From positions 16,862-80,861 of the forward strand of contig JAUCBJ010001800.1 in assembly GCA_032718475.1 (NCBI GenBank): a stretch of 64,000 bases of DNA. Reading direction: 5' to 3'. Numbering within the stretch: position 1 is the stretch's first letter; each line of letters opens with the position of its first letter. The DNA is from Nemertoderma westbladi. Its lineage: Eukaryota; Animalia; Xenacoelomorpha. Under the pieces are notes generated by a model, which saw only the letters and a list, made by a program, of their open reading frames with translations, was not told the origin of the DNA and searched no databases. Made by a program: the position numbers and the translations under genes. This document shows positions 27,498 to 55,769 of this stretch, one piece after another.

Positions 27498-27643
27498 TAA
27501 AAGATGATCTCCCAGAAACTAAGACCCTTGGTTTGAAATGGGACACCGAAAGAGATATCCTGTTTTTCCAACTAAAACAGCGAGATAATCCAGTTCGGAC
27601 TAAACGGATTTGTTGAAGTATCCTGAGCACTTATTTTGATCCA

Positions 27644-28657: not shown

Positions 28658-28676
28658 TACCACTCCAATAACATCA

Positions 28677-30744: not shown

Positions 30745-31015
30745 ATCTGCAATTCTAGTCGATTAAGATATCGCGGCACCCACCGATATACTTGAAAGAC
30801 AAAATTCTAGAATCAGTGGTTAACGTCCCCAGACAACTGGAATAAACTGGTGCCCATCCTAAATATTAATTATTAATATTTACAAAATCTGTCAAAATTT
30901 AGATCCTTTAAAATTCTAGTCGATTAAGATATCGTAGCACTTACCGATACTCTTAAAAAGACAAATTCCTAGAATCTAGGATCCCAGTCCCCAGACACGT
31001 TCTGGAATAAAATTA
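30745..31015 (+). repeat. ~160-bp direct duplication in the pol-ORF3 spacer of A
   Basis: AATTCTAGTCGATTAAGATATCG…GACAAA…CTAGAATC…TCCCCAGACA…CTGGAATAAA occurs at about 30751 and 30912. Confidence 0.8.
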
Positions 31016-31847: not shown

Positions 31848-33369
31848 TGACTAAGTTGATAGAAGATGATCTTGGTATCAGGGAGCGATATACTCTAAGT
31901 TTACAAACGTTTGTTGATAGCTTGATACGCGGCGACGCTGGTCCAACTACTACGGAGGACGATGGTCGTTATATCTAAGCGCCAATGTCCCGGGAGCAAC
32001 TTGCGCGTGGGTTGGACTGTAGAAAATTCACCGCTCGCTGTGCGCGTCGTAAATGGTACGTATATGGACTTCTTAACTACTGGTCATCCTATCGACCTAC
32101 ACGATACGAACGATATAGACACCAAAAGGGAAATGGTTTTATTTAAATATCATACCCAGCGGAAGCGGAACGATAAACTGAGACTCGAACACGAAAATTC
32201 TATTCGAAACCGACTCGAAAGTGCAGATGTTGAAGAGCCGGATAAACGCAGCGACTTCACCAAATACCTGGAATTCTTGAGAGAAACCTATTTCGATATT
32301 ACCAGTCAACAGAATCTAGAAACTCGATATCCTCAAGGTATACATCATGACCGCATGGTAGAACTCAAACGGCTCTATTCCACTATGATGTATCTTACCG
32401 CCGATCGACCGCTACCTGTTGTACCGGATAGCTTCGAACAGATGGAGGAATATTGTAAAACTGGAGAACGATCACCCACGTTTCCCCTACAAGACGTGCG
32501 TCTTTAGTATTATTGCAATGAATGCCCAAGACCCAACCAACAAACGAAAAGACATAAACATCCGCGGAGACGTTGCTTTAAACACGGTTTTACTCGCTAT
32601 ATTTACGGGAGTTTCGAGCGAAACTTGTTCGATGTATCACCTACGCTCGTTCGACTCGGACGATCCTTAAATAAACCAATGATCAGAGTTTCGGAATACT
32701 CGATCAGACCTCCTCATTCCCTAGTGAGACCTCAGACTCTTGATCCTATTAGTATGACGGATCCTCCCGAGCTGTACTCACTGCTCAAAGATCTAGTGTT
32801 ACCTGAACAATTAGTCGGTGGCACCCCGGTTGTGGGCTTCCTAGATATTAGCCCATCCTACCTAGCCGGATTGGGACGCGGACATTTAATATCGCCGTTT
32901 AACCCTTACCATCGTCCCGGCTTAACACGATATAACCTGTCACCAAAGTGGCGGAGAGCATTGTACCAAATGAGTTAGACGCTATTCTACAAAGATCAGA
33001 AAAGGAACTTATGCTTGTTCAGATAAACGTAAATTGCACTAGCAAGTCCAAGCGGTAAACAAAGTAACTATATCTCAGTTCGATCGGGAAATCCAGAATC
33101 TCTAAGAAGTTATCGAACTTGGACGACCCTATTCTCTGCGAGAGTTTTTGGATGAACGTATCCAGCTACGAGGAGGAAAATCAGCTCGAGGAGAAGCATA
33201 TCGAAACGGCGGATACCCCGACCATAATCCTACACCTTCTGATGCAATCATATTGCACCCTTCACCCAGGATTTATAGCCCTCCTAGTAAAGTGGCTCGC
33301 CCCAAAGAGAAAAGGACTCTTGCTAGCCTCAAAAAACTGCGTAAACGCCGTCCTCGTAAGAAAGACTAA
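31848..33369 (+). pseudogene. Element A ORF3 (disrupted), homologous to the N-terminal domain of element B ORF3
   Basis: 31962-32507 and 32625-32978 are in the same frame across a TAG. ELKRLYSTMMYLTADRPLPVV..F..M..Y + YYCNEC…RCFKH aligns with B ORF3. Basic tail KKLRKRRPRKKD. Confidence 0.65.
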
Positions 33370-33449
33370 CTGTTTAGAGTAACTTTATATTTTAGAAACT
33401 GTGATTTGTTATATTTTATAGACTTAATAATCCCATTTTCTGGGAGCGG

Positions 33450-34615: not shown

Positions 34616-34620
34616 AGATC

Positions 34621-36600: not shown

Positions 36601-36853
36601 AGTATCAATATCTGATATCAATATAATAATGCTTGCTATATTTGGGTCAGATATATATATACTGTATATATCAGTATATAGCCGGTACAACAATACCAGA
36701 ATACAGTCAGGCAGTTGGCACGGCATAAGCAGACACATTCAGTACACAGTCAGACAAAGGTAATAAGGTACCGGTAATACTGTTGTAGGCTATATCAGCC
36801 ATACTAAAATATAACCACCACCAAGATAATATATAATTAAGGTACTGTATAAC

Positions 36854-37148
36854 TTGGAACACATATGTGAAAATGCCCTACCCGACATTGAAAACTTCTG
36901 GGTACCCAGAGCTTATTTCCCTAACGCTCTGCCATCGCACACGTACCAATTACACGTGTTCGGTGACGCTAGTGACAAGGGCATTGGTATCATAGCCTAT
37001 TATAGGGCCACTACACCCCAAGACACTCGGGTGTCATCACTAGTACTGTAGCGTCCAAATCTTTGATAAAATGCAAAGATTTAACAGTGCCAAGAACTGA
37101 ACTAAAGGCCGCACTGTTTGCAACTACTGTTGCCAAAAATATCCCTGA
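36854..37148 (+). pseudogene. Element C RNase H fragment (interrupted by B)
   Basis: YQLHVFGDASDKGIGI…VPRTELKAALFA..VAKNIP continues as DETDFVISRTVLWTD at 55770. Confidence 0.85.
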
Positions 37149-39053
37149 TATAGAATTATATTCTCTAAATGCCGTGGATTTTCAAAATTTTTATTTTATT
37201 CGAATTAACTTTGTTAAAAGATTACATTAAGTCCTCATTTGTATTTGCTATATCTATTTGTACGATGATTAGTCAAGTGGTTCAGTAGCTCAGTCGGTAG
37301 AGCGTTGGAAATTATATGTAGTGTGTATTGAGTTCGAATCCTTATTATTTTTTGTGCAGAATTTCAACTCATTTAAATTGACCGCTACAAATTAATTGCA
37401 TTTGCTCGAAGTAAGATTAACCAATGAGACTGTAGTTATTAGATTGTAACCAATGTCGTACAAGTTATATATTTGCTGGACCAATAGCTATCTTTAAAAA
37501 CCTGTTAGAACTCATAGAACAATCGAGAATTTTCTCGATTGATTGCGGCACAAATTTGGTATAAAAGGTGCGATTTCGTTCATTAGTTATATATCTAAAT
37601 CAGATTATATCTAAATCTCAGTCTATATCTCAATCATTCGTGATTTAGATTATCTTTATCTATTAGTTTCTTGTTACGTTTATGTATATCTTCTGTAATA
37701 AAGTCAGAATTATCGCTAATCTGCCCTTTTTCTATCTGTTCTACTATGCTTCACCACGGTGAACTCAACTGAGGGACAGGATGGCTGGCTAAACATCGGG
37801 CCACAGCAATGAACGGGAACATCTAAGGAATGTAGACAGGAGACAACCCGCAATATCACTCTTAGTTATTCGCCCATCGCCTGAAAGGTTAGACAGCGTT
37901 CGATGCCTTGCTACCTAAGTATAAGACCAAAGATCGAAGGTAGAGGTAGTGACACGCTGTACGCCTAAAATTACATCTAGGGACTGTACTGTTTTAATTC
38001 GGGAAAAAACCGCAGTAGACCTTCATATTCCTACGGGGGGAGAGCAGGCAGAGATACTAGTACGCAGATAGGACGTAGGCACACCGGTACAAAGCATACA
38101 CATTGGTAGGGTGCAGCAAACTGTACGCCTAACTCTTGCTAAGTACAGGTGCGTCTGTGACTATTTGTAGTACAACGGTGTCCATTGCATTAGAACTTGT
38201 AGGCCAGGAGGGTTACTGTGTTTCACCTGAATTAGGATTGTACCGTTCAGGCGGTAGGGCAGTTTACGACTAGGCGCAAATAAATTGAGGCTAATTAGGG
38301 ATACTAACATCTACCGTGTCCCCGCCGACATCCTGATAGGAAGTTACCAAGCCCACCTAGGTAACCAAAATTCTAGATAGGACGCCAGGCTAGCTATTAG
38401 TAACCGTACGCCTACTGTAGTAAACTAACACATTTCTTCTTAGCATTAGGGACCTGGTAAATTAAAATTGCCGAATTCTGGGCGTAGCATTAACCTTATG
38501 CCCGAATTTGAGTCCTGGAAATACGCAAGAGGGGAAGGAGCCTTATCATTCGTGAGTATTGGACCTACAAGTTACAAAATTAGAATATTCGTAAAATGCA
38601 CACCGTACCCAGTAATTATATATATGAAGGAGCAAAACTGATCTTGACGGTTCAGAATTAACACACGCGAGTTAGAAATTATTTACACCTCAAAATATAT
38701 AAAATTAACTTTTGTCCGTACTGCACTTTGCCCGCTAGTTAGACATCTCCAGATCTCTGCACCTAGCTAGCGTCCTTTTCGCCCAACCATATAAATCACA
38801 CCGCGGCAAAGTATACGAGCCCCTTAGTCCGTCAGTGAGTCAGCCTGATTTTAGGATTCGCTGCGCGGGATTTTGTTTTATCGAAGTTTGTCCGTTCGTA
38901 GACTGTTTTCTGCCTCACCGGTTATAAGAGACCGATACTGCAATATATTCGCTTACTTGGAGTTTACTGTTTTGGTGATAAGGTCGGATTTATGATTTGA
39001 TTCACAAACTCTACAGTAGGATATTGCAGGTATTGTTACTGTCTCTTCATTTA
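37149..39053 (+). repeat. 5' LTR of element B (1905 bp; termini TA…TA)
   Basis: Direct repeat of 53854-55769. TATA-like TATAAAAG at 37560; AATAAA at about 37697 and 38279. Confidence 0.95.
37279..37353 (+). ncRNA. tRNA-like Pol III cassette (A box, B box, T-tract) inside the LTR of B; second copy at about 53985-54069
   Basis: TAGCTCAGTCGGTAGAGC (D-arm / A box), GAGTTCGAATCC (B box), then a T tract. Acceptor and anticodon stems do not pair well. Confidence 0.55.
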
Positions 39054-39072
39054 GTAGGAATATGAAGGTCTA
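39054..39072 (+). promoter_or_regulatory. Non-tRNA primer-binding site of B, perfectly complementary to LTR 38016-38034
   Basis: GTAGGAATATGAAGGTCTA is the exact reverse complement of TAGACCTTCATATTCCTAC (38016-38034 and 54732-54750). Confidence 0.8.
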
Positions 39073-39633
39073 AAGTTATTTGAAAATTTTTGTATTTTGA
39101 GGTAAAATTTATATTTGATTAGCTAAGTGCTAATTTTTTGAAATAAAATTTGATTTGAACCGCGTGTAAAATATTTTGCAATTGAATACCGGTGTTTAAA
39201 AGGGTTTAAATACCATATTGTACCGGTACAAAATTTTCGTAAAAGTAAAACCTAACTCTTTTGTTTTTCAGGATTCAGAACTCATTTCTAGACTGTAACG
39301 AGAGCAAGACCGTGTTTAGCAAGTTTGGGAGATAGATAACCCAACAACTTTGGTTGGGAAAATCGCACTTCGTCCGCAACGCTGGAAACGGAAAGGTTCA
39401 CGTCCGGTTTGTATCTGGGAATCTGTTTTTCTGGAGAATTATTGGAGTGGGTGAGTTTGAAAAGTTGCATAAATAAGTTAGGCATTACCGTATTAGTTAA
39501 AATTATTGTGGGTTCCACTGTCTCAAGTATTTATGCATTCTGTACGATTTCTTTGTTCATTGCTGAATTAGTCCGTATTATTGTATTTAATTTACATTTT
39601 GATAACGCATATCGTTATCCGATTTATTTGTTA

Positions 39634-39757
39634 TAAAATTGGCCGCTAGGCTAATTTTATTATATACTTATTCCGTGACATTTATTTGCTGTAAAATTGG
39701 CCGTTTAGGCTAATTTTATCCATCTGCTATAAAATCGGCCGGTAGGCTAATTTTATA
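39634..39757. repeat. Three palindromic hairpins AAAATTGGCC-NNN(N)-AGGCTAATTTT in the leader of B
   Basis: Copies at about 39634, 39693 and 39731. Confidence 0.7.
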
Positions 39758-39842
39758 TGACTGTAATTAGTACCGTTTTGATATAAATACGGTAAATTTG
39801 ATACTTTGACACTCACATTTTACTTGACTTACAACTACCGAA

Positions 39843-42800
39843 ATGAGTGACAAACAAGACTATACGAAGAATACACCTACCGACTATGACTCATGTGACG
39901 CGGATAAGTCAGCAGCGGAAGAACTACAAGGGAAGACTTGTGAGCCTACCGAACCTACACCGTGTGCGTCACCAGTACATCCAACGGGAGTACCGGATGC
40001 CGTAGTACGAGGCGACGGCAGGACTGAGGATTTCCTAACGGTCCCGCAACCTAGATACAGGGAAACGGAGATGGTAAGTTCAGTAGGAAGCACAGAAAGT
40101 GTGGTTAGAAGCGTCGGAGGCTACATGGCGCATATTACTAGGAGTATTGGAGAAGGCCAACGCGTATTAGACGAGTTGACCGCTCCGATGTCTCGATTCG
40201 AGTTCTACACCCTCCAGGTTAGAGTACAAAGTAGAGTACATAAGTACGTAGATAATCTAATTGGTCTACAAGATCTAGCTAGACAGAGACAGGATGTGGA
40301 TACTCAACTTAGAATCCTCGAGAAACTAATGATCGCTAGAGAGAAACTGATTCAGTTTAAGTCGACGATTAGGCAGATACAACAGGAACAAGCGGACCAG
40401 TTGTTAGGTGAGTCAGTTTCGGACGAATTATTGCAGCCCGAGGAAGAACAGGAACTGTACCGACTGGATGGACAATTGAAACATCTGACGGACCACTTAC
40501 GTATGTGCGGTGAAGACGTCGGCGATTTGGAAACCGTGCCGGAATATACGAGGGAAACTTCACCCGTACAAATCGAATCGGCACCGGGAATACTGGACCA
40601 ATCGTTAGTGAGTATTGGCGAGGTAAGTATAGTGACGTCAGAAATTTCCAGACAGCAACAACAGCACTATAGACAACAACGGGAAATTGAGGAACAAACT
40701 CAACTGTTGACGGTACAAGCGGCGGTAGAAGAAGAAAAACTACGCGTTGCAAATGTTGCAAGAATCTCTCATCTGCAAGAACAAGCCGAGTTGGAAGCAG
40801 CTGAGATGGAAAGGTTGGAGCTAGAAATAGCACAGCGAACAGCGGCAGCTGAGTTAGCGCAACAAGCGGCAGCAGCTGAGTTAGAACGACGAGCGGCAGC
40901 AGCTGAGTTAGAACGACGAGCAGCAGCAGCGGAACTAGAGCGACGAGCAGCGGAGTTGGAAGAACACAAGCGAGTTTCGGAAGTAAGAGCTGAGATGAAA
41001 AAACGGCAAATAAAGGCTCAATCAGCTATACGACAAGCGGAGTTCGAGGCGCAACAACAACAGACGGAACAACGCGAGAAAGAAGTTAAACTTCATTTCG
41101 AACTCGAGAAGAAGGCGAGAGAATTAGCCAACGCGAAGGAAGATCTGGATCTACAAGCCCGCGATCGATCGATGAGATCTCGTGACGGACATGATTTGGA
41201 CCAGATAGAGGTAAGGCACCGCCAAATTCAGGAACGAATGAAGGAAGGAAGTGTAGGGGCACCTGGGCGAGAAAGACAATTAGTTAAAGACTTATGTCAA
41301 AGATTCCCTCAAGTAACTCCTATGTTTGCACCAGTTACGACTAAGGAACCTGTTTCGATTGCTGGTAGTAGTAATATTTCTCCTATCCATGGTGCGACGG
41401 AACACAGGTTTGTTATTCCGGACAAGTTTACACCGCCAAGAGCAACGTCATCGCCTATTCTGAAAGTCAAGGTAAGTAACCCACCGATTATAGATCGTAG
41501 TAGTTTGTTGACCAGACCTGCACTGCTGACGACTAAACAGGTGAGTCCACCTTTGACACCAAAACCCGTTACGCACTACACGTACCCAATGACGTTTAGG
41601 CCTACAAGGCCTTTAGATTCAAACGCTGTCATTCGACCACCGTTTAATCAGTTTACATCGCAATCTACAACTTCGAGGAAGACTTGTGAGCCTACCAAAC
41701 AACGGAGAACAGTGGATACGCGACCGTTTAATCAGTTTACATCGCAATCTACAACTTCGAGGAAGACTTGTGAGCCTACCGAACAACGGAGAACAGTGGA
41801 TACGCGACCGTTTAATCAGTTTACATCGCAATCTACAACTTCGAGGAAGACTTGTGAGCCTACCGAACAACGGAGAACAGTGGATGATGTTCCGAAACGG
41901 AATGTTAGAATTCGAACGACACAACGGACGCGAGCACGTCGACCAACATATCCAGGTGACAGTAGTACTTCAAGCGAGTCGGATTACCCGGAACGCGAGG
42001 TATTTAGAACAGGAGCGGCCGACGAATATAAACGTGAGCGTTCAGATAACTCCTTTATCGATAATCCTCCACACAATACACCAACACAGAAAGCGTTACA
42101 ACCAACAGACGCGATTAGTACGCAACAATTCGCCGATCTAATGCGACCAGTTGTAGACAAGTTGGCCCAGATAGAAGAACGTTTAGAAGAAACTCAAACT
42201 GATAGTTCGCGAGGTAACGAACACTCTAGACACCCGAAGCAGCAAAGAAAACAACCCTCGAGAAACACCTCGTATCAAGGAAAAGCGCCAAGACGAGAGA
42301 ACATCAACTCGATTGCCAACCAAGGACGCGAAACTTTGAACGTGGCCGAGGAGATAGCAAAATTTGCAGCGAGACAAGGACTACCGGTGCAACAACCACT
42401 GAAGTTTTCCGGTAACTCGAAACATTGGCACACCTTTGAGGACTACATCGAAACACAAATAGCAGCGTGCGCCTTTACATCAAGGGAAAAATTCAACTAC
42501 CTGCTACAAACGCTGACGGGAGAACCGAAACGTTTAGCGGAGACCTTTGTCGGTGTACCAGACGCCTTCGAACTAGCGTACGATCGCTTAACTTCGATTT
42601 ACGGAGGCACCGTAAGCATGGCTAAGTCAGTCATAGAAGAACTCTGTAAGGGGGGGGCTATAACAAAACCCGTTGACTTACTGAAATTAGCTGACGAGAT
42701 TAAGAACGCCATTACTACACTACGCTCGATTGGACAACTTGACTACGCGAACACTCCGACAGTCCTATTGAAAATAATAGGAAGATTACACCATCGACTT

Positions 42801-42860
42801 CGTCGGGAGTGGCGAAAGATAGAATATCAGCGAGAAGAGAGGAGAAGAGCGGATTCTTGA
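39843..42860 (+). CDS. gag: Element B gag (coiled coil plus DUF1759-like core), ends at a frameshift
   Basis: PLKFSGNSKHWHTF…EKFNYLLQTLTGEPK. Contains AAAELERR repeats and an 84-bp x3 repeat at 41635-41885. Confidence 0.85.
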   Translation: MSDKQDYTKNTPTDYDSCDADKSAAEELQGKTCEPTEPTPCASPVHPTGVPDAVVRGDGRTEDFLTVPQPRYRETEMVSSVGSTESVVRSVGGYMAHITRSIGEGQRVLDELTAPMSRFEFYTLQVRVQSRVHKYVDNLIGLQDLARQRQDVDTQLRILEKLMIAREKLIQFKSTIRQIQQEQADQLLGESVSDELLQPEEEQELYRLDGQLKHLTDHLRMCGEDVGDLETVPEYTRETSPVQIESAPGILDQSLVSIGEVSIVTSEISRQQQQHYRQQREIEEQTQLLTVQAAVEEEKLRVANVARISHLQEQAELEAAEMERLELEIAQRTAAAELAQQAAAAELERRAAAAELERRAAAAELERRAAELEEHKRVSEVRAEMKKRQIKAQSAIRQAEFEAQQQQTEQREKEVKLHFELEKKARELANAKEDLDLQARDRSMRSRDGHDLDQIEVRHRQIQERMKEGSVGAPGRERQLVKDLCQRFPQVTPMFAPVTTKEPVSIAGSSNISPIHGATEHRFVIPDKFTPPRATSSPILKVKVSNPPIIDRSSLLTRPALLTTKQVSPPLTPKPVTHYTYPMTFRPTRPLDSNAVIRPPFNQFTSQSTTSRKTCEPTKQRRTVDTRPFNQFTSQSTTSRKTCEPTEQRRTVDTRPFNQFTSQSTTSRKTCEPTEQRRTVDDVPKRNVRIRTTQRTRARRPTYPGDSSTSSESDYPEREVFRTGAADEYKRERSDNSFIDNPPHNTPTQKALQPTDAISTQQFADLMRPVVDKLAQIEERLEETQTDSSRGNEHSRHPKQQRKQPSRNTSYQGKAPRRENINSIANQGRETLNVAEEIAKFAARQGLPVQQPLKFSGNSKHWHTFEDYIETQIAACAFTSREKFNYLLQTLTGEPKRLAETFVGVPDAFELAYDRLTSIYGGTVSMAKSVIEELCKGGAITKPVDLLKLADEIKNAITTLRSIGQLDYANTPTVLLKIIGRLHHRLRREWRKIEYQREERRRADS

Positions 42861-44632
42861 AGTTGGAAGACGTCTACTTACTGATATCCAGAGAGGCAGT
42901 AGTCGAGACGCGTTCGAACTACACGGACCACCATATTGTGGCGGAAGGAATAACCTTACCATCCTCCAACAGACAAAAACCACCGATGACATCCACAAAG
43001 ACGGTTACCTACGCAACATCGACCGACACCCGACAATTTTCGGACAGTAATAAGGTATCCGCACCAATTGGAACCAAACAGATCCGACAGCAACTGAGCA
43101 CAGACTTTAGCGGTTGCCAATATTGCGAACGGCTAGGTTAATGACATACTAGCCATAAACTGAGAGGTTTTCGACTATTCCGCGAATTGAACTCGGAGGA
43201 ACGACGACTGCAAATACGGCCATTGGACTCTTGTTGGCGGTGTACGCTACATGGACATGTCCGTAAAGACTGCCCAAATACAGACACCTGTCCTTCCTGT
43301 GGACGCAACCATGGCGGTTTGCTCAACACAGACAGTCATACGCCGACAAAACGCTTCACCAGGGAACACCCGGAAGCGGCAGCAAGATGCAACACAGCAT
43401 ATAAGGGTCGAGAGTCAAAAACAACACCGACTTTCGTGACATACATTAGAGATTGCTTCTCGGAACAATCAGGATCGTCGGATGAAGAGTCGGAAGACGA
43501 AGACGTTTACTTTGATACTGGAGACGAACAACCATCGATTGCGCTTCTGACGCCTGATCAACTAAAGGGGTTTAGTATAATTCCTGTCAAGATTACTGGC
43601 ACCAAAGGGAGCAAAAGGATCTACGCTATCCTGGATTCAGCCTCATCTCATAGCTACGTGGATGAGAAAGTAGCTGATGTTGTGACGGATCTCCGACAAG
43701 GTAAGAACGTCAGTTACACCGTAAGTAGTATGCATGGACAACGTGCAATACCAGTGACACGAGTTAAGTTGAACTTAGACACTCTTCTTCCGAAATCACA
43801 ACATAGCGAAAAGGAGAGGTCTTTGTTACCCTTTAAAGATTTAACCGTTGCGGCCACAAAGGACTTTAGTAACCTACTAGGTCCTGTCCCAGAACAATCC
43901 TTGGAGGACCGTAAGTACTTCAGACACCTTGGTGTACCTGAATGTCCTGTCAACTATAGGTCGGTAGCAATGCTGATCGGGACAGATCAATTCAACCTAC
44001 ATCAAGTGTGGGAAACCAGACCATCGGCAGTCGTAGCGGGAAACGCATACGCCTGTAGAACGCCGATAGGGTGGTATACTCGAGCGCCTGTGCGCACACT
44101 GGATATAAGTGACGAGGAAGACGATATACAAAGTACATGTAGTTTATTAACTACAACTTCGACTCATTCCTTTTCACACGACGTAGACTATACTACACTA
44201 CATTCGACAAAACATGACACGACGTGTGTAGTGAGTATGATAAGTCACAAGGAGCAGCTAATCCACCAGGTGAGTTTAGAACTTGGGAAGAAGACGAGTC
44301 AGCCAGAGATTCCATCGACGACAGATGATAACGCCGGAAGGCTTGCGAGTCTACCTCAACCAATAACCTCAACAATGCCCGTCGATATCGATGATGACGC
44401 GTTAAGAAATCATCAAGTGGAACAAGCTGCACTGGACAAAGAATTAACGGAGAAGACTATCAGGTGGTTAGAACAAGATACAGCCGAACCTGGTAGCTAT
44501 GAACCATGTATGTCGGAACAAGAGAAACAATCTTTGAAGATCATGGAAGATACTATCCGCCAGACGAAAGACGGACATTATGAGGTAGGGGTGCTATGCC
44601 GTAACCAACGTCCTAAACTTATAAATAACTAG
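42809..44632 (+). pseudogene. pol: Element B gag knuckles plus aspartic protease (broken by a stop or frameshift)
   Basis: CQYCERLG*, CWRCTLHGHVRKDC, CPSCGRNHGGLL, AILDSASSHSY, LIGTD. Confidence 0.8.
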
Positions 44633-44706
44633 CCTTAAGACGTTTACACTCAATACGACAACGTCTATTAAAGGACGAGAAAGCCCATCTGCAGTATAAT
44701 ACTCAG

Positions 44707-47700
44707 ATGGAGACGTATTTAACGAAGGGATACGCTATCAGAATAACTAACCCAGAGATTGTGACTGACCAGACATACTACTTGCCACATCACTACGTGA
44801 GACACCCCGACAAACCAGACAAAGTACATGTAGTCAATGACTGCGCGGCGCTGTTTGAGGGAATGTCCCTCAATAGTGAGTTAATGGATGGACCAAACAT
44901 GAATAATTATCTCATGGGGGTGATTATGCGCTTCCGTCAGCGTCAAGTAGCCTTTACTTGTGACGTCGAAGCTATGTTTCACCAAGTGCGAGCGTTAGAG
45001 CGAGACAGAGACAGTTTTAGGTTCCTCTGGTACCCGGAAGGAGACTTAAGTCTACCACCGGCGACTTACCAAATGCAAGTTCGCGTTTTCGGTGCCAGGG
45101 ACAGCCCAAACTGTACGATGTACGCCCTAAAGCAAGCCGCTAGGGATCAGAAACATATATATGACCCAGAGATAATCAAGATCGTAGAACGCGACTTTTA
45201 TGTAGATGACGGATTACAGAGTTATGACACAGTAGAACGTGCTATAACAGTAGCACATCAATTACGGGACTGCTTAGCGGGCGGAGGTTTTAACCTCACC
45301 AAATTCGCCTCAAACAGTGCCGAATTGGTAGACTCATTCGGAACGACTGAGCGTGGAGGTGGTGACATTGACCTAGAGTTCGAACTACTACCGACGACCA
45401 AGGTGTTGGGGCTCTTTTGGGACCCAAACACGGACAACTTTCGAGTGAAGGTGAGACTGGACACTCAAGAAAACACTCTGACAAAGAGATCCTGCTTGTC
45501 AAAATTGAGTCGATTGTTCGATCCATTAGGTTTCATCAGCCCAATAATACTGCAAGCCAGAATTTATATGCGCAGTATTTGGAAGGATGGACTGACATGG
45601 GACGAGCCGATCTCATCAGAACAAGTGGACTTATGGAAAACCTGGGAGGCAGAATTATCTTCACTAGAGGATTATTCCATACCCAGAGTGTACTTTCCAT
45701 TACAAACGACATTTCCTGACAATTTGGAATTACATTGTTTTTCCGATGCCAGTGACAACGGCTTTGGTGTGGCAGCGTATTTACGCAGACAAGTAGACTC
45801 AGACGAGTTTGATGTTTCGCTCATTACTTCTAAGGCTAAAACCATGCCTACTAAGTATATGACGACACCATGCGCTGAGCTACAAGCCGCAACCCTGTCA
45901 ACCACAATCGTGAACCTTATACAGACGGAACTACAGTCAAGTTTACAGATATTTTATTGGACTGACGCGACGTTGGTTTTATTTTACATAAACAACGACA
46001 CACTTGAATTCAAGACATTCGTAGCTAACCGTCGCGCAGAAATTCTAGACCGTTCAATAAAGGAAGATTGGCGACATTGTCCCGGACCACAAAACCCAGC
46101 CGATATTGCGTCACGAGGAATGATGCCCGAGGAATTCTGTAAACCGGAGAACAAAGAATTTTGGCAGCACGGACCACAATTCTTGCAAAGATCAACACTA
46201 CATTGGCCGCCACTATACGACAACAAGTCTAACACTATCCCTAAAGACGCCGAAATTAAAAAACCAAAGAAAGGGAAAGCAAAGAAAAGGACGGCGGCTA
46301 AACTCAAGAAAAAACCAAAGGCGAAATGGAAAGATATAACTTCAAAGGTCAAGAACGGAAGACTTGCGAGCCTTTCTACACCAGACATATCGCCAGATGA
46401 TCAACCAGACACGTTACCAGACGTATCGCCAGACGCGTTACTAGACGGTCAACCAGACGTTTTGCCAGACATGTCACTAGATATTTCGCCGGATGTTCCG
46501 CGAAACATTTTACCAGACATGTCACAAAATGTTCTACCAGACACTAGTAACATATTGACAAATAGTAAAGCCGCAGTTTCTCTATTGGAGCGGCCTTCTA
46601 TTGACAAACAACCAGACGCGTTACTAGACGGTCAACCAGACGTTTTGCCAGACACGTCACTAGATATTTCACCAGATGTTCCGCGAAACATTTTACCAGA
46701 CATGTCACAAAATGTTCTACCAGACACTAGTAACATATTGACAAATAGTAAAGCCGCAGTTTCCCTATTGGAGCGGCCTTGTATTGACAAACTACCAAAT
46801 TTGACACACTTGAGCAACCATAAGCACAGTGAAACCTCATGTATTACAGATGTGGGTAGTACCTACGCTAATGTAAATACAGGTGTTACTTTGCGCTCAA
46901 GAGACATACCAAACTTGCAACCTATGGTGAGAACCGGGATTAATATCGGCAGAAAATTAAGTTTACCGAAACCCAGTGACCCCATAGAGTTCAAACCACC
47001 ATTAACGATCGACTTACAAAGTACCGACAATCAAGGTAAGAAGACAAAGAAGGACAAATTACTTGTAGACCCGGATGGATCAACAGTCAACAAGGGAATA
47101 CCTACCGGCGCACCCATGGGCCCTTCTAGTAATTCAAAACCTTCCAAATTCTCCATTGACTTACCTGATGACGTCACAAATACTTACGTCGACCGTATTG
47201 TAAACTTAACAGATTCTTGGACAAACGCTTGCCGAAAATTAGCGTGGATTGTACGTTTTGTACAATACGTTAAAGGCAAACGAGACTTTACACGTCGACT
47301 TACATTGACTGAGATTGACAGGTGTGAAATTAAATTAATTCGCCATTACCAACTGCGATATTTTGCGCGCGAATTCACATCTATAAGTCAAGGTCAACCA
47401 ATCAAGTCGTCACCAATATTGAGTTGGAGTCCGATAATTTATAATGGCTTAATTTGTCATAAATCTCGGCTTCAAAACATTGACTTTAACACAAACTTTA
47501 GATACCCAATAATAATACCGCAGCATCACGAATTACAACGTGCAATGATACTGGACGCACATTTACATCTGAAACACGCTGGAAGACACCACTGTCTTTC
47601 CTACTTACGTACAAGATTTGTATTAATTAGACCCAGTAAAGCGTTAAGTTTAGTGACACGTACGTGTATTATTTGTAAAAAGGTACATTCTAGAATAGGT

Positions 47701-48696
47701 ACCCAAGAAATGAGTGAACTTCCACAAGCACGACTTCAAGCATTCAGACCACCTTTTACAGAGACTGGAATTGATTGCTTTGGTCCCATACATACGAAAC
47801 GTGGACGTATACTAGTAAAACGCTGGGGACTGATTTTCACATGTATGTCCAGTAGGGCAGTTCATATTGAACGTGTGATGGATCTTTCCACCAACGCGTT
47901 TATACTAGCATTGCGGCGATTTATCGCTAGACGCGGACTAGTGAAATGCTTGTACTCAGACCAAGGGACAAACTTTGTTGGTGCTCGAAATGAGATTGCT
48001 AGAGCCTTTAAGAAATTAGATCATGATCAAATCTCAAACGAACTACGTCCTTACAAGATTGTTTGGAAGTTTAATCCTCCAGATAGTCCATGGAGAGGCG
48101 GAGTCTGGGAGAGATTGATTAGATCTATAAAAACAGCCATGGCAAAGGTCATTCCAGTAAACCACATCTTGACAGACGACCAACTGACAACACTGTTTGT
48201 TGAAATCGAGGCAATACTAAATACTAGACCAATAGTATTAGTACCCGATGACAAACAATCCCAGTTTGCTTTAACACCAGCACACCTGCTTATGCAGGCA
48301 CCGACTACATTAACGCCTATTTCTTTTCCAATGGAAGGCGATAGCTACGGTAGAAAAGCGTGGAAAATCACGCAACTACTAGCTAACAAATTCTGGGAAA
48401 TATGGCAAAACCATTATTTGCCCTCTATTTCTGCCAGAACAACATGGTACAATAACACCCGCGCATTAAAGCCGGGAGATCACGTGCTGTTAGCAGAAGT
48501 GAATCTAAAAAGACGCTTCTGGATAACAGGTGTAATTTTAGACACACATCCATCTATGGATGGAGTAACAAGAACTGTGACGGTACGGACAATTGACGGT
48601 CGTACAGTAGACAGACCGACTCAACGTCTCGTACTTCTTGAAGAGTCTCGAAACGAGTCTGGAGACTACAAATCTCCAACAAATGTTAGTAAATAA
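44707..48696 (+). CDS. pol: Element B RT-RNase H-integrase
   Basis: CDVEAMFHQV, FYVDDG, FDPLGFISP, LHCFSDAS, NPADIASRG, GIDCFGP, SDQGTNF, GGVWERLI. A 198-bp x2 duplication lies in the RH-IN linker (about 46410-46790). Confidence 0.92.
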   Translation: METYLTKGYAIRITNPEIVTDQTYYLPHHYVRHPDKPDKVHVVNDCAALFEGMSLNSELMDGPNMNNYLMGVIMRFRQRQVAFTCDVEAMFHQVRALERDRDSFRFLWYPEGDLSLPPATYQMQVRVFGARDSPNCTMYALKQAARDQKHIYDPEIIKIVERDFYVDDGLQSYDTVERAITVAHQLRDCLAGGGFNLTKFASNSAELVDSFGTTERGGGDIDLEFELLPTTKVLGLFWDPNTDNFRVKVRLDTQENTLTKRSCLSKLSRLFDPLGFISPIILQARIYMRSIWKDGLTWDEPISSEQVDLWKTWEAELSSLEDYSIPRVYFPLQTTFPDNLELHCFSDASDNGFGVAAYLRRQVDSDEFDVSLITSKAKTMPTKYMTTPCAELQAATLSTTIVNLIQTELQSSLQIFYWTDATLVLFYINNDTLEFKTFVANRRAEILDRSIKEDWRHCPGPQNPADIASRGMMPEEFCKPENKEFWQHGPQFLQRSTLHWPPLYDNKSNTIPKDAEIKKPKKGKAKKRTAAKLKKKPKAKWKDITSKVKNGRLASLSTPDISPDDQPDTLPDVSPDALLDGQPDVLPDMSLDISPDVPRNILPDMSQNVLPDTSNILTNSKAAVSLLERPSIDKQPDALLDGQPDVLPDTSLDISPDVPRNILPDMSQNVLPDTSNILTNSKAAVSLLERPCIDKLPNLTHLSNHKHSETSCITDVGSTYANVNTGVTLRSRDIPNLQPMVRTGINIGRKLSLPKPSDPIEFKPPLTIDLQSTDNQGKKTKKDKLLVDPDGSTVNKGIPTGAPMGPSSNSKPSKFSIDLPDDVTNTYVDRIVNLTDSWTNACRKLAWIVRFVQYVKGKRDFTRRLTLTEIDRCEIKLIRHYQLRYFAREFTSISQGQPIKSSPILSWSPIIYNGLICHKSRLQNIDFNTNFRYPIIIPQHHELQRAMILDAHLHLKHAGRHHCLSYLRTRFVLIRPSKALSLVTRTCIICKKVHSRIGTQEMSELPQARLQAFRPPFTETGIDCFGPIHTKRGRILVKRWGLIFTCMSSRAVHIERVMDLSTNAFILALRRFIARRGLVKCLYSDQGTNFVGARNEIARAFKKLDHDQISNELRPYKIVWKFNPPDSPWRGGVWERLIRSIKTAMAKVIPVNHILTDDQLTTLFVEIEAILNTRPIVLVPDDKQSQFALTPAHLLMQAPTTLTPISFPMEGDSYGRKAWKITQLLANKFWEIWQNHYLPSISARTTWYNNTRALKPGDHVLLAEVNLKRRFWITGVILDTHPSMDGVTRTVTVRTIDGRTVDRPTQRLVLLEESRNESGDYKSPTNVSK

Positions 48697-49358
48697 TTAG
48701 GAGTTTACAAATAGATTTCCACGTACCTGTACACTGTAGTAAGGACAGCGGTAGAATTCCATTGTCTTTATATGTGAACATTGAGGGTAGTACCCTTATG
48801 TGTCACATAGGAGCGGGATTTGTAGGTATAAGAAATGGAATTCTACTTGGAACTCACAATATTGAGACATTTTCGAAATTTTAGACAATCCATTTGGATT
48901 TGAAAATTTTTTAAAATTTTCTCCAGTGAATAGATTTCAGGGTACAGTCGGGTGGAACTTAAAATTTGAGAAACAAGAGAGGAAGACTTGCGAGCCTTTC
49001 TTAAAAATTTTAATTAAATTTTACACGGTCTTGTTTCAATAAGTTACGTCAAAATAGACTTCCCTATATTTATTACTAATTCTTGACTGCTTATTTTCTG
49101 ATAATAGTTTGGGATCAAAAAGTGAGTATTTTAGACTCACAGCCAGTTTAGCCCAAATTCGTTTTTATTTTCGGCAAAAAATTTTAGATAAGAAGCAGCG
49201 TGTCATTAAAGAAACCCTAGATCTTAGGCTATGGGTAGGAGGTTAGAGCGTTGTCGAGCCAAAAGGGCAGACGAAAACTCTCACATCTCCTCACAACTAA
49301 CTACAAACTCTGTTGTATTCCCTCTAGTAGTAATGATTATGTAACTACACCTCTAATT

Positions 49359-52300
49359 ATGGAGAAGGAGATACATGGAGAGCCGAGATGGGGATATGAT
49401 ATCCAAGAGGAAGTAGCAGCGCCATTCGAGAGATTTGGAGCCAAAGACTACACTATATTTGGTATAAAGGAATTATCAGAAAGTACAGCGAAACTCGCGA
49501 GAACTAAATATGACTCAAACGTATTAAAGAGAAGGCAAAACGCATTAAATGAAAGAATCAAAAGTTTGCGCAAAACCTTCAATGAACTTTACCCGTACGA
49601 CGCTTTGTGTGATACGGGAGACATTAGCGAAGACCCCGATACTGAAATTAGTCGTTTGTATCATACCATGCAATACCTAAAGGCGCACGAACCTATGCCT
49701 GCGGTACACGTTGAATTCGATGGAATGCACCTTTACAGACGAACTCGAGGGGACGATAGAGAAACAAAGGAAGCATTTTCAGTTTATAAACTTTATTATC
49801 AATGCGGTTCTTGTATGCGCAAACAACGAAATGCGATTCCAATGCGTTTGAATAAGGAAAATCCCGAACCGATATTGGCGAGGTGTTCGAACCATCAACG
49901 ACTACGCTACCAGGAAGGAGGGTATCCTTTATCAAATCCATATCATTCGTTTGCTATGACTGGACCAAAGGCGGGAGAAACTGTCGTTTACCCACCTAAG
50001 GTTGTTGAACCCGATGCATTTGAACTTACGCTGGACGAGGCGAATCAGTCAACCCGCGAAAAGAAAGAAGCTCTTAGCCTATACAGAGCCTACAAGGCTT
50101 TCGAGAAAGGTGAGATGGAAGAATGGGGCGGAAGACTCGCGAGCCTACCTTACCATTGGACGTCACACGATCAAACTCCAGCTAAGGAGATGACACCGGA
50201 AGTTTTCGAGAGCATAAACTTTGCTCAAAACGTTATTCAGAGACTACAGATTGCATCCCCGGAGAGGACAAGAGAAATGCAACCATATAGTACTTCGACT
50301 ACGAAACCATTGAGTACGACACTCAATTTTCCTATTAGTATACCAGTCCGACAGGATACGACGTACGAAATACCCATCGTGGATCATCCAGAAATCATTT
50401 CAAACTTGGAGTTCCTTCCTGCAGTTGTTTTTAGCGATATGAGTAAGATATATGATTTACGTAGACATATTACTCAAAAGGTCGTGTATAACGTTCCACC
50501 TCATATTCAAGACTTTAGGGAACTGGATAGAGCTGGTGCTGATATAGCTCCGAGTAATTTGAAAGGATATTTAACCAGAACGATTCGTTTATGGATTGGA
50601 ACTGGAACCTTCGAGTTGGATACAGATATTGCCGCGGATTGGCAAGGTAAGCTTATTCGTTTTGAAGATGATAAGGACATAGAGAAGATTTGGCAACCTT
50701 CGGAAGAATTGTTGGACGAATGGAATAGAACGTTTAGATCGTTTCAGGAAAATGGTTACATGTTTTACGATAACGAGGGCGGCAGTCATCAACAGAGTTT
50801 GACTTCTAAGACTATACAAATTAGAGCGGCGGACGGAGTCTTGCACGTTTTCAGTAGACAAAGGAGCGACAAACGAATGCCGATACCTCCAGCAAATACA
50901 AAGCGACACCATCTCATCACTGACATAGTAAAGAAGATGGACCAAGCTTGTAATATCGATGCTAGAATGCTACCGAAGATGGTAAGAAATATGATTTTAG
51001 ATAAAACTGTCGTAAAGATTGGATCAGGAGTAAGAGAGGACTTAATTAGCGACTTCGCCGGCATGACGGACAGCAATGACCGACTACCGACACCGTACGT
51101 CGACACTCGACCTCTTATTTTGTGGTCTATAGAACAGGGATATTTTCGTGAGTATAATACTCAGAAGACTGGAACTGGATACATTTCCTACCTGTTATTC
51201 AATTGGGATTATAAGGAAAGTAAGAGAGCTAAGTATATTGAGACTTATGGAGAAGGTGATACTCCAGATATGAGTGAGTTTGAATCACAGCTCAAATGGA
51301 GAGGATGCGTGTATTGGGCTATTACGTCACCTCCAAGAGCGGTCTTACAATATTATTTAGCAATAGAGTCGTCAGTGAATGTTTGCTTAATCGCCGACAT
51401 TGTGTCTCGGACTCTTAAAAGACATCCACTTTGTCTCGGAGAAGATCATACGTTCTACATGGAAGGGAGAATTCATACCGACGTGTTTAGACGATTTCTT
51501 GAACCCTTCTACAACTCCGACGCTCAGTGTAATGCCTTTACTCGAGCAGGATTTAGTATATTTCGAGACGTGTATCTTCGCTGTGCGGGATCTCTTATCG
51601 AAAGACCATCTATGTTTACATTGTTACCCTATGAAGGAGAACGTATCGTGGAGGTTATGGATGAATCACGGCAGACGCGCGCGCCTATCGGTCACCTTGG
51701 TGATGATTTCGAAGTAACGACAACAATCACTGACGATCCTTTAGAGGAACTTCTTGAGATAGAAAGGAACCTCCCGAAGAAATCTCAGACGGAGATTCGA
51801 CAACTTGAAGCAACAGATGCTGTAGTTTGTATACAACCTTCAGAAACATACCAACCCATAGATCCAGATGATTATGATTATAGTGTGGGAGGAAGCGCTC
51901 GACCAATTGGAGATCTTATATACGAACGAGTGTGGTACCCTGCCAATACGATGTGTGGTAAATGTGGCGTCGCTGGACATCATTTGACCAAGTGCAGTGG
52001 AAAGCACATTACTACGACTCAACTAATCTGTGGATGGTGTGGAGATCAAGGGTCTCATACCTTTTATACTTGCTGGAGATTTATGGCTCAATGTACTTAT
52101 TGCAATATAAAAGGGCATCGAGCATCTGAATGCCAACTAAGAGACATACCTTATGAACACGAATCTGTAAAACTCGTGAGAAAACTATTCGATGAGTGGG
52201 AATATTTAGCCGACGAACATGTATCGGCACAAAGAAGACGATTTCCGATGAGAGCGCATCTTGGATTTTGGGCGGTAAATCCTCAAACTATGATGTCGGA

Positions 52301-53051
52301 AGGATACATCTCCGCTATGCCCCAATATGACGAACTTATCGAGGAAGTCGACATTTTGCCTCACGATAGTGGATATAGAGTGGTGCGCGAGTATCTATTA
52401 CAGATTCACCCGGACAACAAGAACACGTGGAATTTTCAGAAAGTTGTGAATCGTATCACGTATGGTGAATTTGATCGTTTCCGAACTGAAAAGCGGAATA
52501 AGGGAGCTTGGTTAACCGTCGCATGGGCATACCGAGCCGCGTTTTACCACAAACGTATACGAGCGAGCGTATTCGAGGAAGAGGAGATCCTAGAGGCGAC
52601 AAATATACCAGCCACTCCGGTTGCGCCGTCTGCACGTCACCCTCGGGAGGACGGACAGGGTAGGATCATAAGGGTCAAGAAAGTGAGCCAACAATTAAAG
52701 AAGTCTATTAATATAGAAGAACGCAAGGGAGTTGAGCCGACCATTCGAATTACTCGGGATACGGTATCGCTTCCTAGAGAACCAACAGGAGGATCGGGAC
52801 ATACACCAGCTGATCAAAAGGGGGTGCAAGCTACTCTTGGGTCTGCATCGTCCGCTTCCCGCGCGTTCCCAGACGTTTTACCAACTGTAGTGACAACTGA
52901 TCGGTCACGAGGAATCGGTCGAGGTTTTGGGATACCAAATAGACGAATTTGCGAGGAAATAGTCGCACCGTCTCCCAACGTACAAGCAAAACCAGTGACT
53001 CGCCCCACGAGTCCCATATCGCGAGCAAAGTCACCTGTGCGCAGTTTTTGA
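49359..53051 (+). CDS. Element B ORF3: Cys/His N-terminal domain, DnaQ-like (WRN/EXD/Mut-7 type) 3'-5' exonuclease, and 3 CCHC zinc knuckles
   Basis: ExoI-like MFYDNEG..TIQI; ExoII-like LPKMVRNMILDKTVVKIGSGVREDL, YVDTRPL; ExoIII-like W…PPRAVLQYYLAIE. Knuckles CGKCGVAGHHLTKC, CGWCGDQGSHTFYTC and CTYCNIKGHRASEC. Open for 1230 aa from the ATG. Confidence 0.75.
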   Translation: MEKEIHGEPRWGYDIQEEVAAPFERFGAKDYTIFGIKELSESTAKLARTKYDSNVLKRRQNALNERIKSLRKTFNELYPYDALCDTGDISEDPDTEISRLYHTMQYLKAHEPMPAVHVEFDGMHLYRRTRGDDRETKEAFSVYKLYYQCGSCMRKQRNAIPMRLNKENPEPILARCSNHQRLRYQEGGYPLSNPYHSFAMTGPKAGETVVYPPKVVEPDAFELTLDEANQSTREKKEALSLYRAYKAFEKGEMEEWGGRLASLPYHWTSHDQTPAKEMTPEVFESINFAQNVIQRLQIASPERTREMQPYSTSTTKPLSTTLNFPISIPVRQDTTYEIPIVDHPEIISNLEFLPAVVFSDMSKIYDLRRHITQKVVYNVPPHIQDFRELDRAGADIAPSNLKGYLTRTIRLWIGTGTFELDTDIAADWQGKLIRFEDDKDIEKIWQPSEELLDEWNRTFRSFQENGYMFYDNEGGSHQQSLTSKTIQIRAADGVLHVFSRQRSDKRMPIPPANTKRHHLITDIVKKMDQACNIDARMLPKMVRNMILDKTVVKIGSGVREDLISDFAGMTDSNDRLPTPYVDTRPLILWSIEQGYFREYNTQKTGTGYISYLLFNWDYKESKRAKYIETYGEGDTPDMSEFESQLKWRGCVYWAITSPPRAVLQYYLAIESSVNVCLIADIVSRTLKRHPLCLGEDHTFYMEGRIHTDVFRRFLEPFYNSDAQCNAFTRAGFSIFRDVYLRCAGSLIERPSMFTLLPYEGERIVEVMDESRQTRAPIGHLGDDFEVTTTITDDPLEELLEIERNLPKKSQTEIRQLEATDAVVCIQPSETYQPIDPDDYDYSVGGSARPIGDLIYERVWYPANTMCGKCGVAGHHLTKCSGKHITTTQLICGWCGDQGSHTFYTCWRFMAQCTYCNIKGHRASECQLRDIPYEHESVKLVRKLFDEWEYLADEHVSAQRRRFPMRAHLGFWAVNPQTMMSEGYISAMPQYDELIEEVDILPHDSGYRVVREYLLQIHPDNKNTWNFQKVVNRITYGEFDRFRTEKRNKGAWLTVAWAYRAAFYHKRIRASVFEEEEILEATNIPATPVAPSARHPREDGQGRIIRVKKVSQQLKKSINIEERKGVEPTIRITRDTVSLPREPTGGSGHTPADQKGVQATLGSASSASRAFPDVLPTVVTTDRSRGIGRGFGIPNRRICEEIVAPSPNVQAKPVTRPTSPISRAKSPVRSF

Positions 53052-53853
53052 GGACGCGGCAGGGCTCGATCTACTAAGCGATAAAAGGGAGGGCAAGGGT
53101 GGACGGAAGACTCGTGAGCCTTTCTTGTGAATTTGTGATTTATTTGATTAGTAAGTTTTGTATTCTGGAAGAACTCATATTTAGTAAGATTTATATTTAG
53201 TAAGAATTTATATTTTGCAAGATTTATATTTTATATTTGTGATTATTCCGAACTTATGCAATTTATATTGTTCCGAATACTATGCAATTTATATCTTATA
53301 AGCAGTATTTGTATTTACAGTGAAATAGAAAGTAAGAGTAGATGGAAGACTCGTGGGCCTTTCTTATAGTAAAGTGTAAAGTGTTATATTTGTATTTAGA
53401 AAGTTTTATAGTTAGAAAGTTTTGTACTTAGAAAGACTCATATTTGTAATTATTCCGAACTTATGCAATCTACATTTAGGCACGAAAGTATTTGTAATTA
53501 TTTGAATTTATGCAATATTTGAGATGCAATAGTAGATGGAAGACTCGCGAGCCTTTCTTATGATTTTCATTTATTTGTATTTGTAATTGTTTGAATTTAT
53601 GCAATATTGAGATGCAATAGATTTATATTGGTGAATTTAATTTAGATTTATATTGTACTTACTTAGTAAAGCCTTAAATATGTAAAGTTTGAATTTGTAA
53701 TTATTTTGTATCGAATCATTATGTAGAAAGGAAGTATTGCTTGAAATTTAATTTGTAAATATGTAAGTACGCCCTAAGTATTCTATAATTTGATTGATTA
53801 TTGGTGAAAACCGTATATTTTATGCACGATAATATCCTGTTTTCATGGAGCGG

Positions 53854-55769
53854 TATAGAATTATATTCTCTAAATGCCGTGGATTTTCAAAATTTTTATT
53901 TTATTCGAATTAACTTTGTTAAAAGATTACATTAAGTCCTCATTTGTATTTGCTATTATCTATTTGTACGATGATTAGTCAAGTGGTTCAGTAGCTCAGT
54001 CGGTAGAGCGTTGGAAATTATATGTAGTGTGTATTGAGTTCGAATCCTAGTAGGTGCGAATTATTTTTTGTGCAGAATTTCAACTCATTTAAATTGACCG
54101 CTACAAATTAATTGCATTTGCTCGAAGTAAGATTAACCAATGAGACTGTAGTTATTAGATTGTAACCAATGTCGTACAAGTTATATATTTGCTGGACCAA
54201 TAGCTATCTTTAAAAACCTGTTAGAACTCATAGAACAATCGAGAATTTTCTCGATTGATTGCGGCACAAATTTGGTATAAAAGGTGCGATTTCGTTCATT
54301 AGTTATATATCTAAATCAGATTATATCTAAATCTCAGTCTATATCTCAATCATTCGTGCTTTAGATTATCTTTATCTATTAGTTTCTTGTTACGTTTATG
54401 TATATCTTCTGTAATAAAGTCAGAATTATCGCTAATCTGCCCTTTTTCTATCTGTTCTACTATGCTTCACCACGGTGAACTCAACTGAGGGACAGGATGG
54501 CTGGCTAAACATCGGGCCACAGCAATGAACGGGAACATCTAAGGAATGTAGACAGGAGACAACCCGCAATATCACTCTTAGCTATTCGCCCATCGCCTGA
54601 AAGGTTAGACAGCGTTCGATGCCTTGCTACCTAAGTATAAGACCAAAGATCGAAGGTAGAGGTAGTGACACGCTGTACGCCTAAAATTACATCTAGGGAC
54701 TGTACTGTTTTAATTCGGGAAAAAACCGCAGTAGACCTTCATATTCCTACAGGGGGAGAGCAGGCAGAGATACTAGTACGCAGATAGGACGTAGGCACAC
54801 CGGTACAAAGCATACACATTGGTAGGGTGCAGCAAACTGTACGCCTAACTCTTGCTAAGTACAGGTGCGTCTGTGACTATTTGTAGTACAACGGTGTCCA
54901 TTGCATTAGAACTTGTAGGCCAGGAGGGTTACTGTGTTTCACCTGAATTAGGATTGTACCGTTCAGGCGGTAGGGCAGTTTACGACTAGGCGCAAATAAA
55001 TTGAGGCTAATTAGGGATACTAACATCTACCGTGTCCCCGCCGACATCCTGATAGGAAGTTACCAAGCCCACCTAGGTAACCAAAATTCTAGATAGGACG
55101 CCAGGCTAGCTATTAGTAACCGTACGGCTACTGTAGTAAACTAACACATTTCTTCTTAGTATTAGGGACCTGGTAAATTAAAATTGCCGAATTCTGGGCG
55201 TAGCATTAACCTTATGCCCGAATTTGAGTCCTGGAAATACGCAAGAGGGGAAGGAGCCTTATCATTCGTGAGTATTGGACCTACAAGTTACAAAATTAGA
55301 ATATTCGTAAAATGCACACCGTACCCAGTAATTATATATATGAAGGAGCAAAACTGATCTTGACGGTTCAGAATTAACACACGCGAGTTAGAAATTATTT
55401 ACACCTCAAAATATATAAAATTAACTTTTGTCCGTACTGCACTTTGCCCGCTAGTTAGACATCTCCAGATCTCTGCACCTAGCTAGCATCCTTTTCGCCC
55501 AACCATATAAATCACACCGCGGCAAAGTATACGAGCCCCTTAGTCCGTCAGTGAGTCAGCCTGATTTTAGGATTCGCTGCGCGGGATTTTGTTTTATCGA
55601 AGTTTGTCCGTTCGTAGACTGTTTTCTGCCTCACCGGTTATAAGAGACCGATACTGCAATATATTCGCTTACTTGGAGTTTACTGTTTTGGTGAGAAGGT
55701 CGGATTTATGATTTGATTCACAAACTCTACAGTAGGATATTGCAGGTATTGTTACTGTCTCTTCATTTA
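53854..55769 (+). repeat. 3' LTR of element B (1916 bp), preceded by short PPT ATGGAGCGG
   Basis: Direct repeat of 37149-39053, followed by TSD CCTGA. Confidence 0.95.

Follow-up and report, generated by a model that had tools for sequence, protein, structure and literature searches.

A BEL/Pao retrotransposon of Nemertoderma westbladi carries a predicted DnaQ-type exonuclease with CCHC zinc knuckles in the env position

The window analysed here, a 64,000-nucleotide stretch of the genome of Nemertoderma westbladi (assembly GCA_032718475.1, contig JAUCBJ010001800.1, positions 16,862 to 80,861 of the forward strand), holds an 18.6-kb BEL/Pao long terminal repeat (LTR) retrotransposon, element B (37149-55769), which carries between pol and its 3' LTR, where env would lie, a third open reading frame (ORF3) for a predicted 3'-5' exonuclease followed by CCHC zinc knuckles. 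The Pfam families DUF1759, Peptidase_A17 and DUF5641 all score above their cut-offs in the gag-pol of element B, and its domains follow the order protease, reverse transcriptase (RT), RNase H and integrase. The two LTRs, 1905 and 1916 bp long, are 99.6% alike, differing by eight substitutions and two indels. BEL/Pao elements usually have TG...CA termini and a primer-binding site (PBS) for a tRNA, whereas element B ends in TA...TA (37149-37150 and 55768-55769), directly abutting a 5-bp target-site duplication (TSD). It has inserted into an older BEL/Pao copy, the interrupted RNase H frame of which resumes beyond the insertion, and is a young, multi-copy retrotransposon. A second BEL/Pao element, A (17674-34616), has TG...CA LTRs that are similarly young, the TSD AGATC, and an ORF3 that is broken and differs in its C-terminal part. 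Feature coordinates are collected in Table 1.

The initial annotation had described an uninterrupted frame of about 1230 codons between pol and the 3' LTR alongside a gag-pol with at least three breaks, and both descriptions hold: ORF3 has a single, terminal stop, the other five frames carrying 47-88 stops, and the gag-pol breaks lie near 42860, 43140 and 44630. A chance ORF was rejected. The motifs on which the exonuclease reading had been built are likewise in place, with YDNEG at 50766 (given at first as about 50760), KIGSGVREDL at 51015 and YYLAIES at 51351, as are the three knuckles, starting at 51954, 52029 and 52092. Two of these are canonical C-x2-C-x4-H-x4-C knuckles and the middle one is C-x2-C-x5-H-x4-C; the family profile matches retroviral nucleocapsid (NC) with E 4e-4. 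An acidic linker of 160 residues separates exonuclease and knuckles. The view that the product is not an envelope protein also stands, since ORF3 shows neither a signal peptide (hydropathy 0.7 within the first 45 residues) nor a transmembrane (TM) segment, the highest 19-residue hydropathy, 1.38, falling on the ExoIII helix, and the env glycoprotein was rejected as a candidate on both counts. Towards the N-terminus lies a domain in common with the ORF3 remnant of element A, of which the Cys/His motif part by itself gives a non-significant E of 0.2 against that remnant.

The central part of ORF3 very probably adopts the DnaQ exonuclease fold, as judged from a family profile and a structure model. 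With ORF3 alone, Pfam returned no match to PF01612 (DNA_pol_A_exo1) at the gathering cut-off, so that of the two families expected at the outset only zf-CCHC (E 0.004) was recovered; neither PHROGs nor PDB sequences gave an exonuclease match to ORF3, nor did PDB sequences to the domain profile, and a single-sequence fold was uninformative (predicted local distance difference test, pLDDT, 30). Relatives came from a search of 1.84 billion representative proteins, which returned four matches. Two, P0002 and P0004, match in the knuckles only and were set aside as gag/pol matches; P0003 and P0005, from ENA contigs of 7,460 and 9,449 bp, align to ORF3 over the exonuclease, the CCHC knuckles and the helical region that follows, with exonuclease-region identities of 33% and 21%. 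Word-indexed searches (proteins of up to 2153 aa) found no ORF3 relative, and one of them missed even P0003 and P0005; metagenome contigs held no relative of ORF3, and viral contigs none of the integrase, P0003 or P0005.

The domain of P0005 reaches E 0.05 against PF01612, under the cut-off. Aligned with 29 bacterial RNase D/PolA exonuclease domains, the profile of ORF3, P0003 and P0005 scores 48 (probability 91%, P 9e-7); 35 column shuffles score no higher than 16, and an integrase profile gives P 0.38. The structure model made from the three sequences (mean pLDDT 42) has the expected order of strands and helices, and EXD2 ranks first for it by Foldseek (E 3e-3), among 48,161 representatives (Z 7.7, root-mean-square deviation (rmsd) 8.0, 123 aligned) and again when the structures are re-aligned (Z 8.4, rmsd 5.0, 112 aligned), though the three rankings share one model and are thus not independent. 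The top structural matches are mostly of the DnaQ family, with PolA-type structures also high and Nibbler and WRN weaker (Z 4.1-4.5). Profile and structure prediction, the latter at low model confidence, thus both point to the DnaQ-like domain that had been proposed, closest to the EXD2/WRN type. Atlas neighbours of P0003 and P0005, useful as leads only, are mostly PF01612 clusters, the first of them mostly euglenozoan and combining PF01612 with zf-CCHC (0.87 and 0.86).

Within the predicted active site, D471, E473, D561, D582 and Y666 are identical in all three proteins, and the D-x-E of ExoI and the Asp of ExoII are in register with RNase D/PolA. The fourth acid, residue 670, differs: P0003 has Asp here, whereas ORF3 and P0005 have Glu. 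In the Y-x3-D of ExoIII the Tyr is thus invariant and the last acid is Glu in two of three proteins, the register being that of the three-sequence alignment; Y666/E670 is a candidate ExoIII resting on this alignment and on structural alignments through the same helix. Insertions separate the motifs of ORF3. The domain is probably catalytically active.

ORF3 also appears to have its own messenger. In one contig of run X4, the ORF3 exon is joined to 29 nucleotides that match the leader at 39421-39449 (compared by eye over all 29), giving a junction 39450|49328 between a GTGAGT donor at 39451 and a pyrimidine-tract AG acceptor ending at 49327, 31 bases ahead of a well-placed ATG. X4 is either RNA or carries a retro-copy of the spliced message, and ORF3 is likely made, to go by this junction, from an env-style spliced subgenomic messenger. 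Other copies lack 1 nt at 49352, which supports 49359 as the true start. A three-codon ORF (49333-49344) lies upstream of this start, past the splice acceptor.

Other copies of the family were examined in contigs of four public runs aligned to 47000-53850; three runs of the same organism cover 30 of 30 bins, and one may be the source sample. Among the 12 indels listed of 34 across this region, none lies in ORF3. Differences among the 40 listed of 493 comprise 14 synonymous and 13 replacement changes in ORF3 (n=27, P 0.006) and seven synonymous and four replacement changes in pol (n=11). Against X4, the exonuclease region shows 31 synonymous and nine replacement differences and no indel (40 listed of 50), for a ratio of replacement to synonymous change (omega) of 0.07-0.10, or 0.22 if all 10 unlisted differences were replacements; purifying selection on this region is significant even in that worst case (P < 1e-6). 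The listed X4 changes leave D471, E473, D561, Y666 and E670 untouched. Contigs about 18% diverged extend over pol and over some of the exonuclease region with 0-3 gaps and a divergence equal to that of pol, and remoter relatives in X4 align chiefly at motif islands, one of them precisely over ExoI. ORF3 is a conserved family feature under purifying selection, and the comparison of copies suggested by the initial annotation, with an omega of about 0.1, excludes a one-off capture: ORF3 occurs in other copies, and diverged subfamilies keep the exonuclease. The contrast between an intact ORF3 and a broken gag-pol was, by itself, rejected as a sign of selection, being non-significant for one copy if three breaks fall uniformly (P = 0.35). 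Copies deleted across the exonuclease domain are present in X1, X3 and X4. Among other copies there are two deletions (49498-51531 and 49514-51643), independent of each other and both out of frame, that remove the N-terminal and exonuclease parts and keep the knuckles.

Elements A and B share a self-priming signature, in that neither has a TGG-type PBS and the bases just past the LTR are complementary to a segment within that LTR. In element B this complement (anti-PBS) is perfect over 19 nt, a length reached in 0 of 5000 shuffled LTRs (maximum 11); in element A it measures 12 nt (18104-18115; 1 of 5000 shuffles), with longer imperfect pairing too. At the primer 3' end, the predicted duplex of B gives way to a 4x4 loop. 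If the TATA at 37560 and the AATAAA at 37697 were those used, the anti-PBS would lie about 430 nt past the RNA start. A three-duplex structure of the Tf1 type is unsupported in B, the flanking duplexes not being the best LTR partners, and no hammerhead core pattern was found in its LTR. The occurrence of the signature in element A, without the enzyme, suggests that signature and exonuclease ORF are not tied to each other.

The 3' ORF of element A indeed gave no exonuclease match, its remnant corresponding to aa 89-189 of ORF3 only, as had been suspected, and the integrases of A and B are 46% identical. An exonuclease homolog was found in 0 of 79 remoter BEL/Pao loci (the best 80 of 260 matches, at 35-40% identity, 18 of the 79 holding at least 2 kb downstream of the integrase). 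Because element A lacks the domain, deletion copies exist and the remoter loci hold no homolog, the exonuclease appears to be optional for the family. Long ORFs past the integrase in these loci were rejected as ORF3s, being mostly gag/pol of adjacent copies. In six metagenome loci (L009, L010, L014, L055, L060 and L072) a new gag begins about 0.6-2.1 kb past the integrase, which suggests head-to-tail or shared-LTR arrays.

Table 1. Coordinates of features of elements B and A, as positions in the window
Feature	Position	Strand	Basis or remark
5' TSD CCTGA	37144..37148	+	second copy at 55770-55774
5' LTR (element B), 1905 bp, termini TA...TA, non-canonical	37149..39053	+	LTR-LTR comparison
anti-PBS (candidate self-primer), complementary over 19 nt without mismatch to the sequence just past the LTR	38016..38034	+	0/5000 shuffled LTRs reach 19 nt
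primer-binding position, without TGG start	39054..39072	+	
splice donor GTGAGT, exon end 39450	39451..39456	+	29-nt loose end of one X4 contig
BEL/Pao gag-pol, at least 3 breaks	39828..48696	+	Pfam domains and reading frames
splice acceptor (pyrimidine tract and AG), ORF3 exon start 49328	49318..49327	+	
ORF3, 1230 aa, intact	49359..53051	+	open reading frame
N-terminal domain, aa 89-189, C-x2-C...C-x2-H motif, common to element A ORF3 remnant	49623..49925	+	tblastn E 2e-7
predicted DnaQ/DEDDy-type 3'-5' exonuclease domain, aa 431-700: D471, E473, D561, Y666, E670	50649..51458	+	profile, model, selection
three CCHC zinc knuckles	51954..52133	+	motif positions; zf-CCHC E 0.004
conserved helical region past the knuckles, also in P0003 and P0005	52149..52400	+	
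purine tract GGAGCGG upstream of the 3' LTR, common to element A	53847..53853	+	
3' LTR of element B	53854..55769	+	
ORF3 remnant in element A, homologous only to the N-terminal domain	32340..32615	+	matches ORF3 aa 89-189, E 2e-7

Element B has in addition two in-frame tandem duplications, 84 bp repeated three times in gag (41639-41890) and 183 bp repeated twice in the RNase H-integrase interval of pol (46429-46797). Each of its LTRs contains a tRNA-like A-box/B-box segment followed by a T-run (37286-37340 and 53992-54046), and an 11-bp indel right past the B box separates the two LTRs. ARAGORN and Rfam call nothing in the LTR, and the pattern test was devised after the segment had been sighted, so that its chance count of zero is inflated. 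The older, decayed BEL/Pao element around B occupies 36850-37148 and 55770-57600, a gypsy-type element starts near 57600, and an intronless F-box ORF of about 470 aa (15032-16477) lies just upstream of element A.

As to function, ORF3 may be a spliced, trans-acting enzyme that trims the 3' ends of RNA and is directed against host small silencing RNAs of the PIWI-interacting RNA (piRNA) type, a reading that is put forward tentatively and that we regard as plausible, if somewhat short of probable. A predicted DEDDy 3'-5' exoribonuclease joined to RNA-gripping CCHC knuckles would be translated from an env-style spliced RNA running from leader to ORF3, would trim or degrade host piRNA-type small RNAs in trans and so blunt silencing, and would serve as an optional booster outside the core replication cycle. 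RNA is the more likely substrate than DNA because of the knuckles and by analogy with the trypanosome enzyme TbRND, in which such fingers hold RNA. A host-facing role fits better than a core step because the domain is optional and recurs in unrelated retroelements, and the DEDDy ORFs of those retroelements (PMC5408684) fit a function independent of the priming mode. Counter-defence is preferred over maturation of a self-primer because element A has the same signature without the exonuclease.

Several points pull the other way. Against a local RNase D profile (hmmsearch), ORF3 alone matches best on ExoII, yet 6 of 300 shuffles do equally well, and hhalign against a DEDDy profile gives a non-significant P of 0.056, so that the DnaQ case from the ORF3 sequence alone is weak. 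Structural evidence is of low confidence, the model having a pLDDT of 42 and its Z of 7-8 lying within the range that the tool calls common. The profile alignment set the ExoIII of the template on an earlier Tyr and not on Y666, and Glu at the fourth position of the tetrad may mean that activity is reduced or abolished. The splice junction comes from one contig of X4, a run for which the label DNA is a guess. Both the target, host small RNAs, and the anti-silencing role are ones that we infer, and the DEDDy ORFs of bdelloids show no clear tracking with copy number (PMC5408684).

The substitution of Glu for the fourth Asp in ORF3 and P0005, together with the insertions between motifs, would also suit a weak or dead RNA-binding module of the EXD1 or Maelstrom kind, which would shield the element's RNA or decoy the host's trimming and piRNA factors; inactive DEDD derivatives do act in piRNA biology (PMC5408684), and purifying selection would look alike. 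Such a module is nonetheless a rather doubtful explanation, as three proteins of 21-33% identity all share D471, E473, D561 and Y666, the fourth position is still acidic, and the remoter X4 relatives align mainly at motif islands, ExoI included. Unlikely, too, is that the exonuclease matures a self-primer, carried into particles by its knuckles and trimming back an RNA from the LTR as far as the border of the 19-bp duplex or, in a variant, polishing one to four unpaired bases after an RNase H cut and so giving RT its 3'-OH. The perfect anti-PBS in the absence of a TGG-type PBS, the 4x4 loop at the primer 3' end and the resemblance of the knuckles to retroviral NC speak for this role. An account in which a self-priming BEL/Pao lineage recruited a TbRND-like exonuclease-knuckle enzyme, made from a spliced RNA, to shorten an RNA from the LTR until the PBS duplex is reached seems improbable in the same degree; if true, the primer would be made by exonucleolytic trimming and not from a tRNA or an RNase H cut. 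Element A, however, has the signature and similarly young LTRs without an exonuclease, ORF3 appears separately spliced and not part of Gag-Pol, and the TATA and AATAAA would put the anti-PBS well inside the transcript. We know of no exonuclease ORF in Tf1/sushi or plant TAR elements, which likewise tells against this role. These elements are themselves described as self-priming in two sources (PMC6317226; 10.1101/2022.12.06.519325).

Action of ORF3 on DNA, as RT proofreading or as tidying of complementary DNA ends before integration, would draw on the proofreading domains within the DnaQ fold, the high rank of EXD2/PolA-type structures and the non-canonical TA...TA LTR ends, but is quite unlikely given a separate ORF without RT fusion, knuckles that point to RNA, and relatives that replicate without the exonuclease. 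Passive carriage of a host sequence without function for the element is largely refuted and has next to nothing left to recommend it: deletion derivatives are common and intactness in a single copy is not significant, but the low omega holds in the worst case, the listed indels spare ORF3 and within it the exonuclease region, diverged subfamilies keep the ORF, and dedicated splice sites are present. Returning to an anti-silencing role, an animal transposon that encodes its own enzyme against piRNA-type silencing would, if true, be of wide interest, and one intact protein makes it directly testable whether ORF3 attacks host small-RNA defence or processes the element's own RNA.

Contrary to what the initial annotation had implied, exonuclease ORFs in the env position are not new. 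DEDDy ORF3s with a DEED tetrad and unknown function were reported in 2017 from the bdelloid LTR elements Juno and Vesta and from Athena/Terminon elements, in a study whose tests of variation were confined to env and GDSL ORFs (Rodriguez, Kenefick and Arkhipova, PMC5408684), and two further papers call a DnaQ-like domain a well-known accessory domain (PMC6338049) and repeat this for Terminons (PMC6431247). The ORF3 of element B resembles the bdelloid ORFs in its features, namely the env position, the lack of a TM segment, one Asp-to-Glu change in the tetrad and family-specific presence. It differs in being carried by a BEL/Pao element, whereas the bdelloid carriers are gypsy-type or Athena; in its 1230 residues with an N-terminal Cys/His domain, three CCHC knuckles and a self-priming signature; in having Glu at the fourth tetrad position, in contrast to the bdelloid DEED; and in that purifying selection has been measured.

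In architecture only, ORF3 resembles TbRND of Trypanosoma brucei, a DEDD exonuclease followed by CCHC fingers that hold RNA, which trims the 3' ends of small guide RNAs (PMC7797062). TbRND is a cellular mitochondrial enzyme that has a canonical DEDD tetrad, four fingers and a short linker, in contrast to the 160-aa acidic linker of ORF3; the first Atlas cluster of P0003 and P0005 is, we infer, the TbRND family. Within the PF01612 clan (EXD2, WRN-exo, Nibbler and Mut-7), EXD2 is the best structural match, yet ORF3 is only 13-19% identical to these proteins, has insertions between motifs, lies below Pfam detection and fits no single subfamily. The pairing of the sequence past the 5' LTR with the element's own LTR RNA recalls Tf1/sushi elements, which are Ty3/gypsy elements in which the 5' end of the RNA carries the primer in a three-duplex structure, the extra duplexes being those unsupported in element B. 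No BEL/Pao exonuclease ORF and no knuckle fusion was found in the open-access literature, a scope that excludes Repbase and subscription papers and in which names written with a slash cannot be matched. ORF3 adds a BEL/Pao carrier and a knuckle fusion to the exonuclease ORF3s already known, and the case as a whole contributes a further superfamily, a knuckle array, purifying selection, a splice junction and, in element A, a natural comparison.

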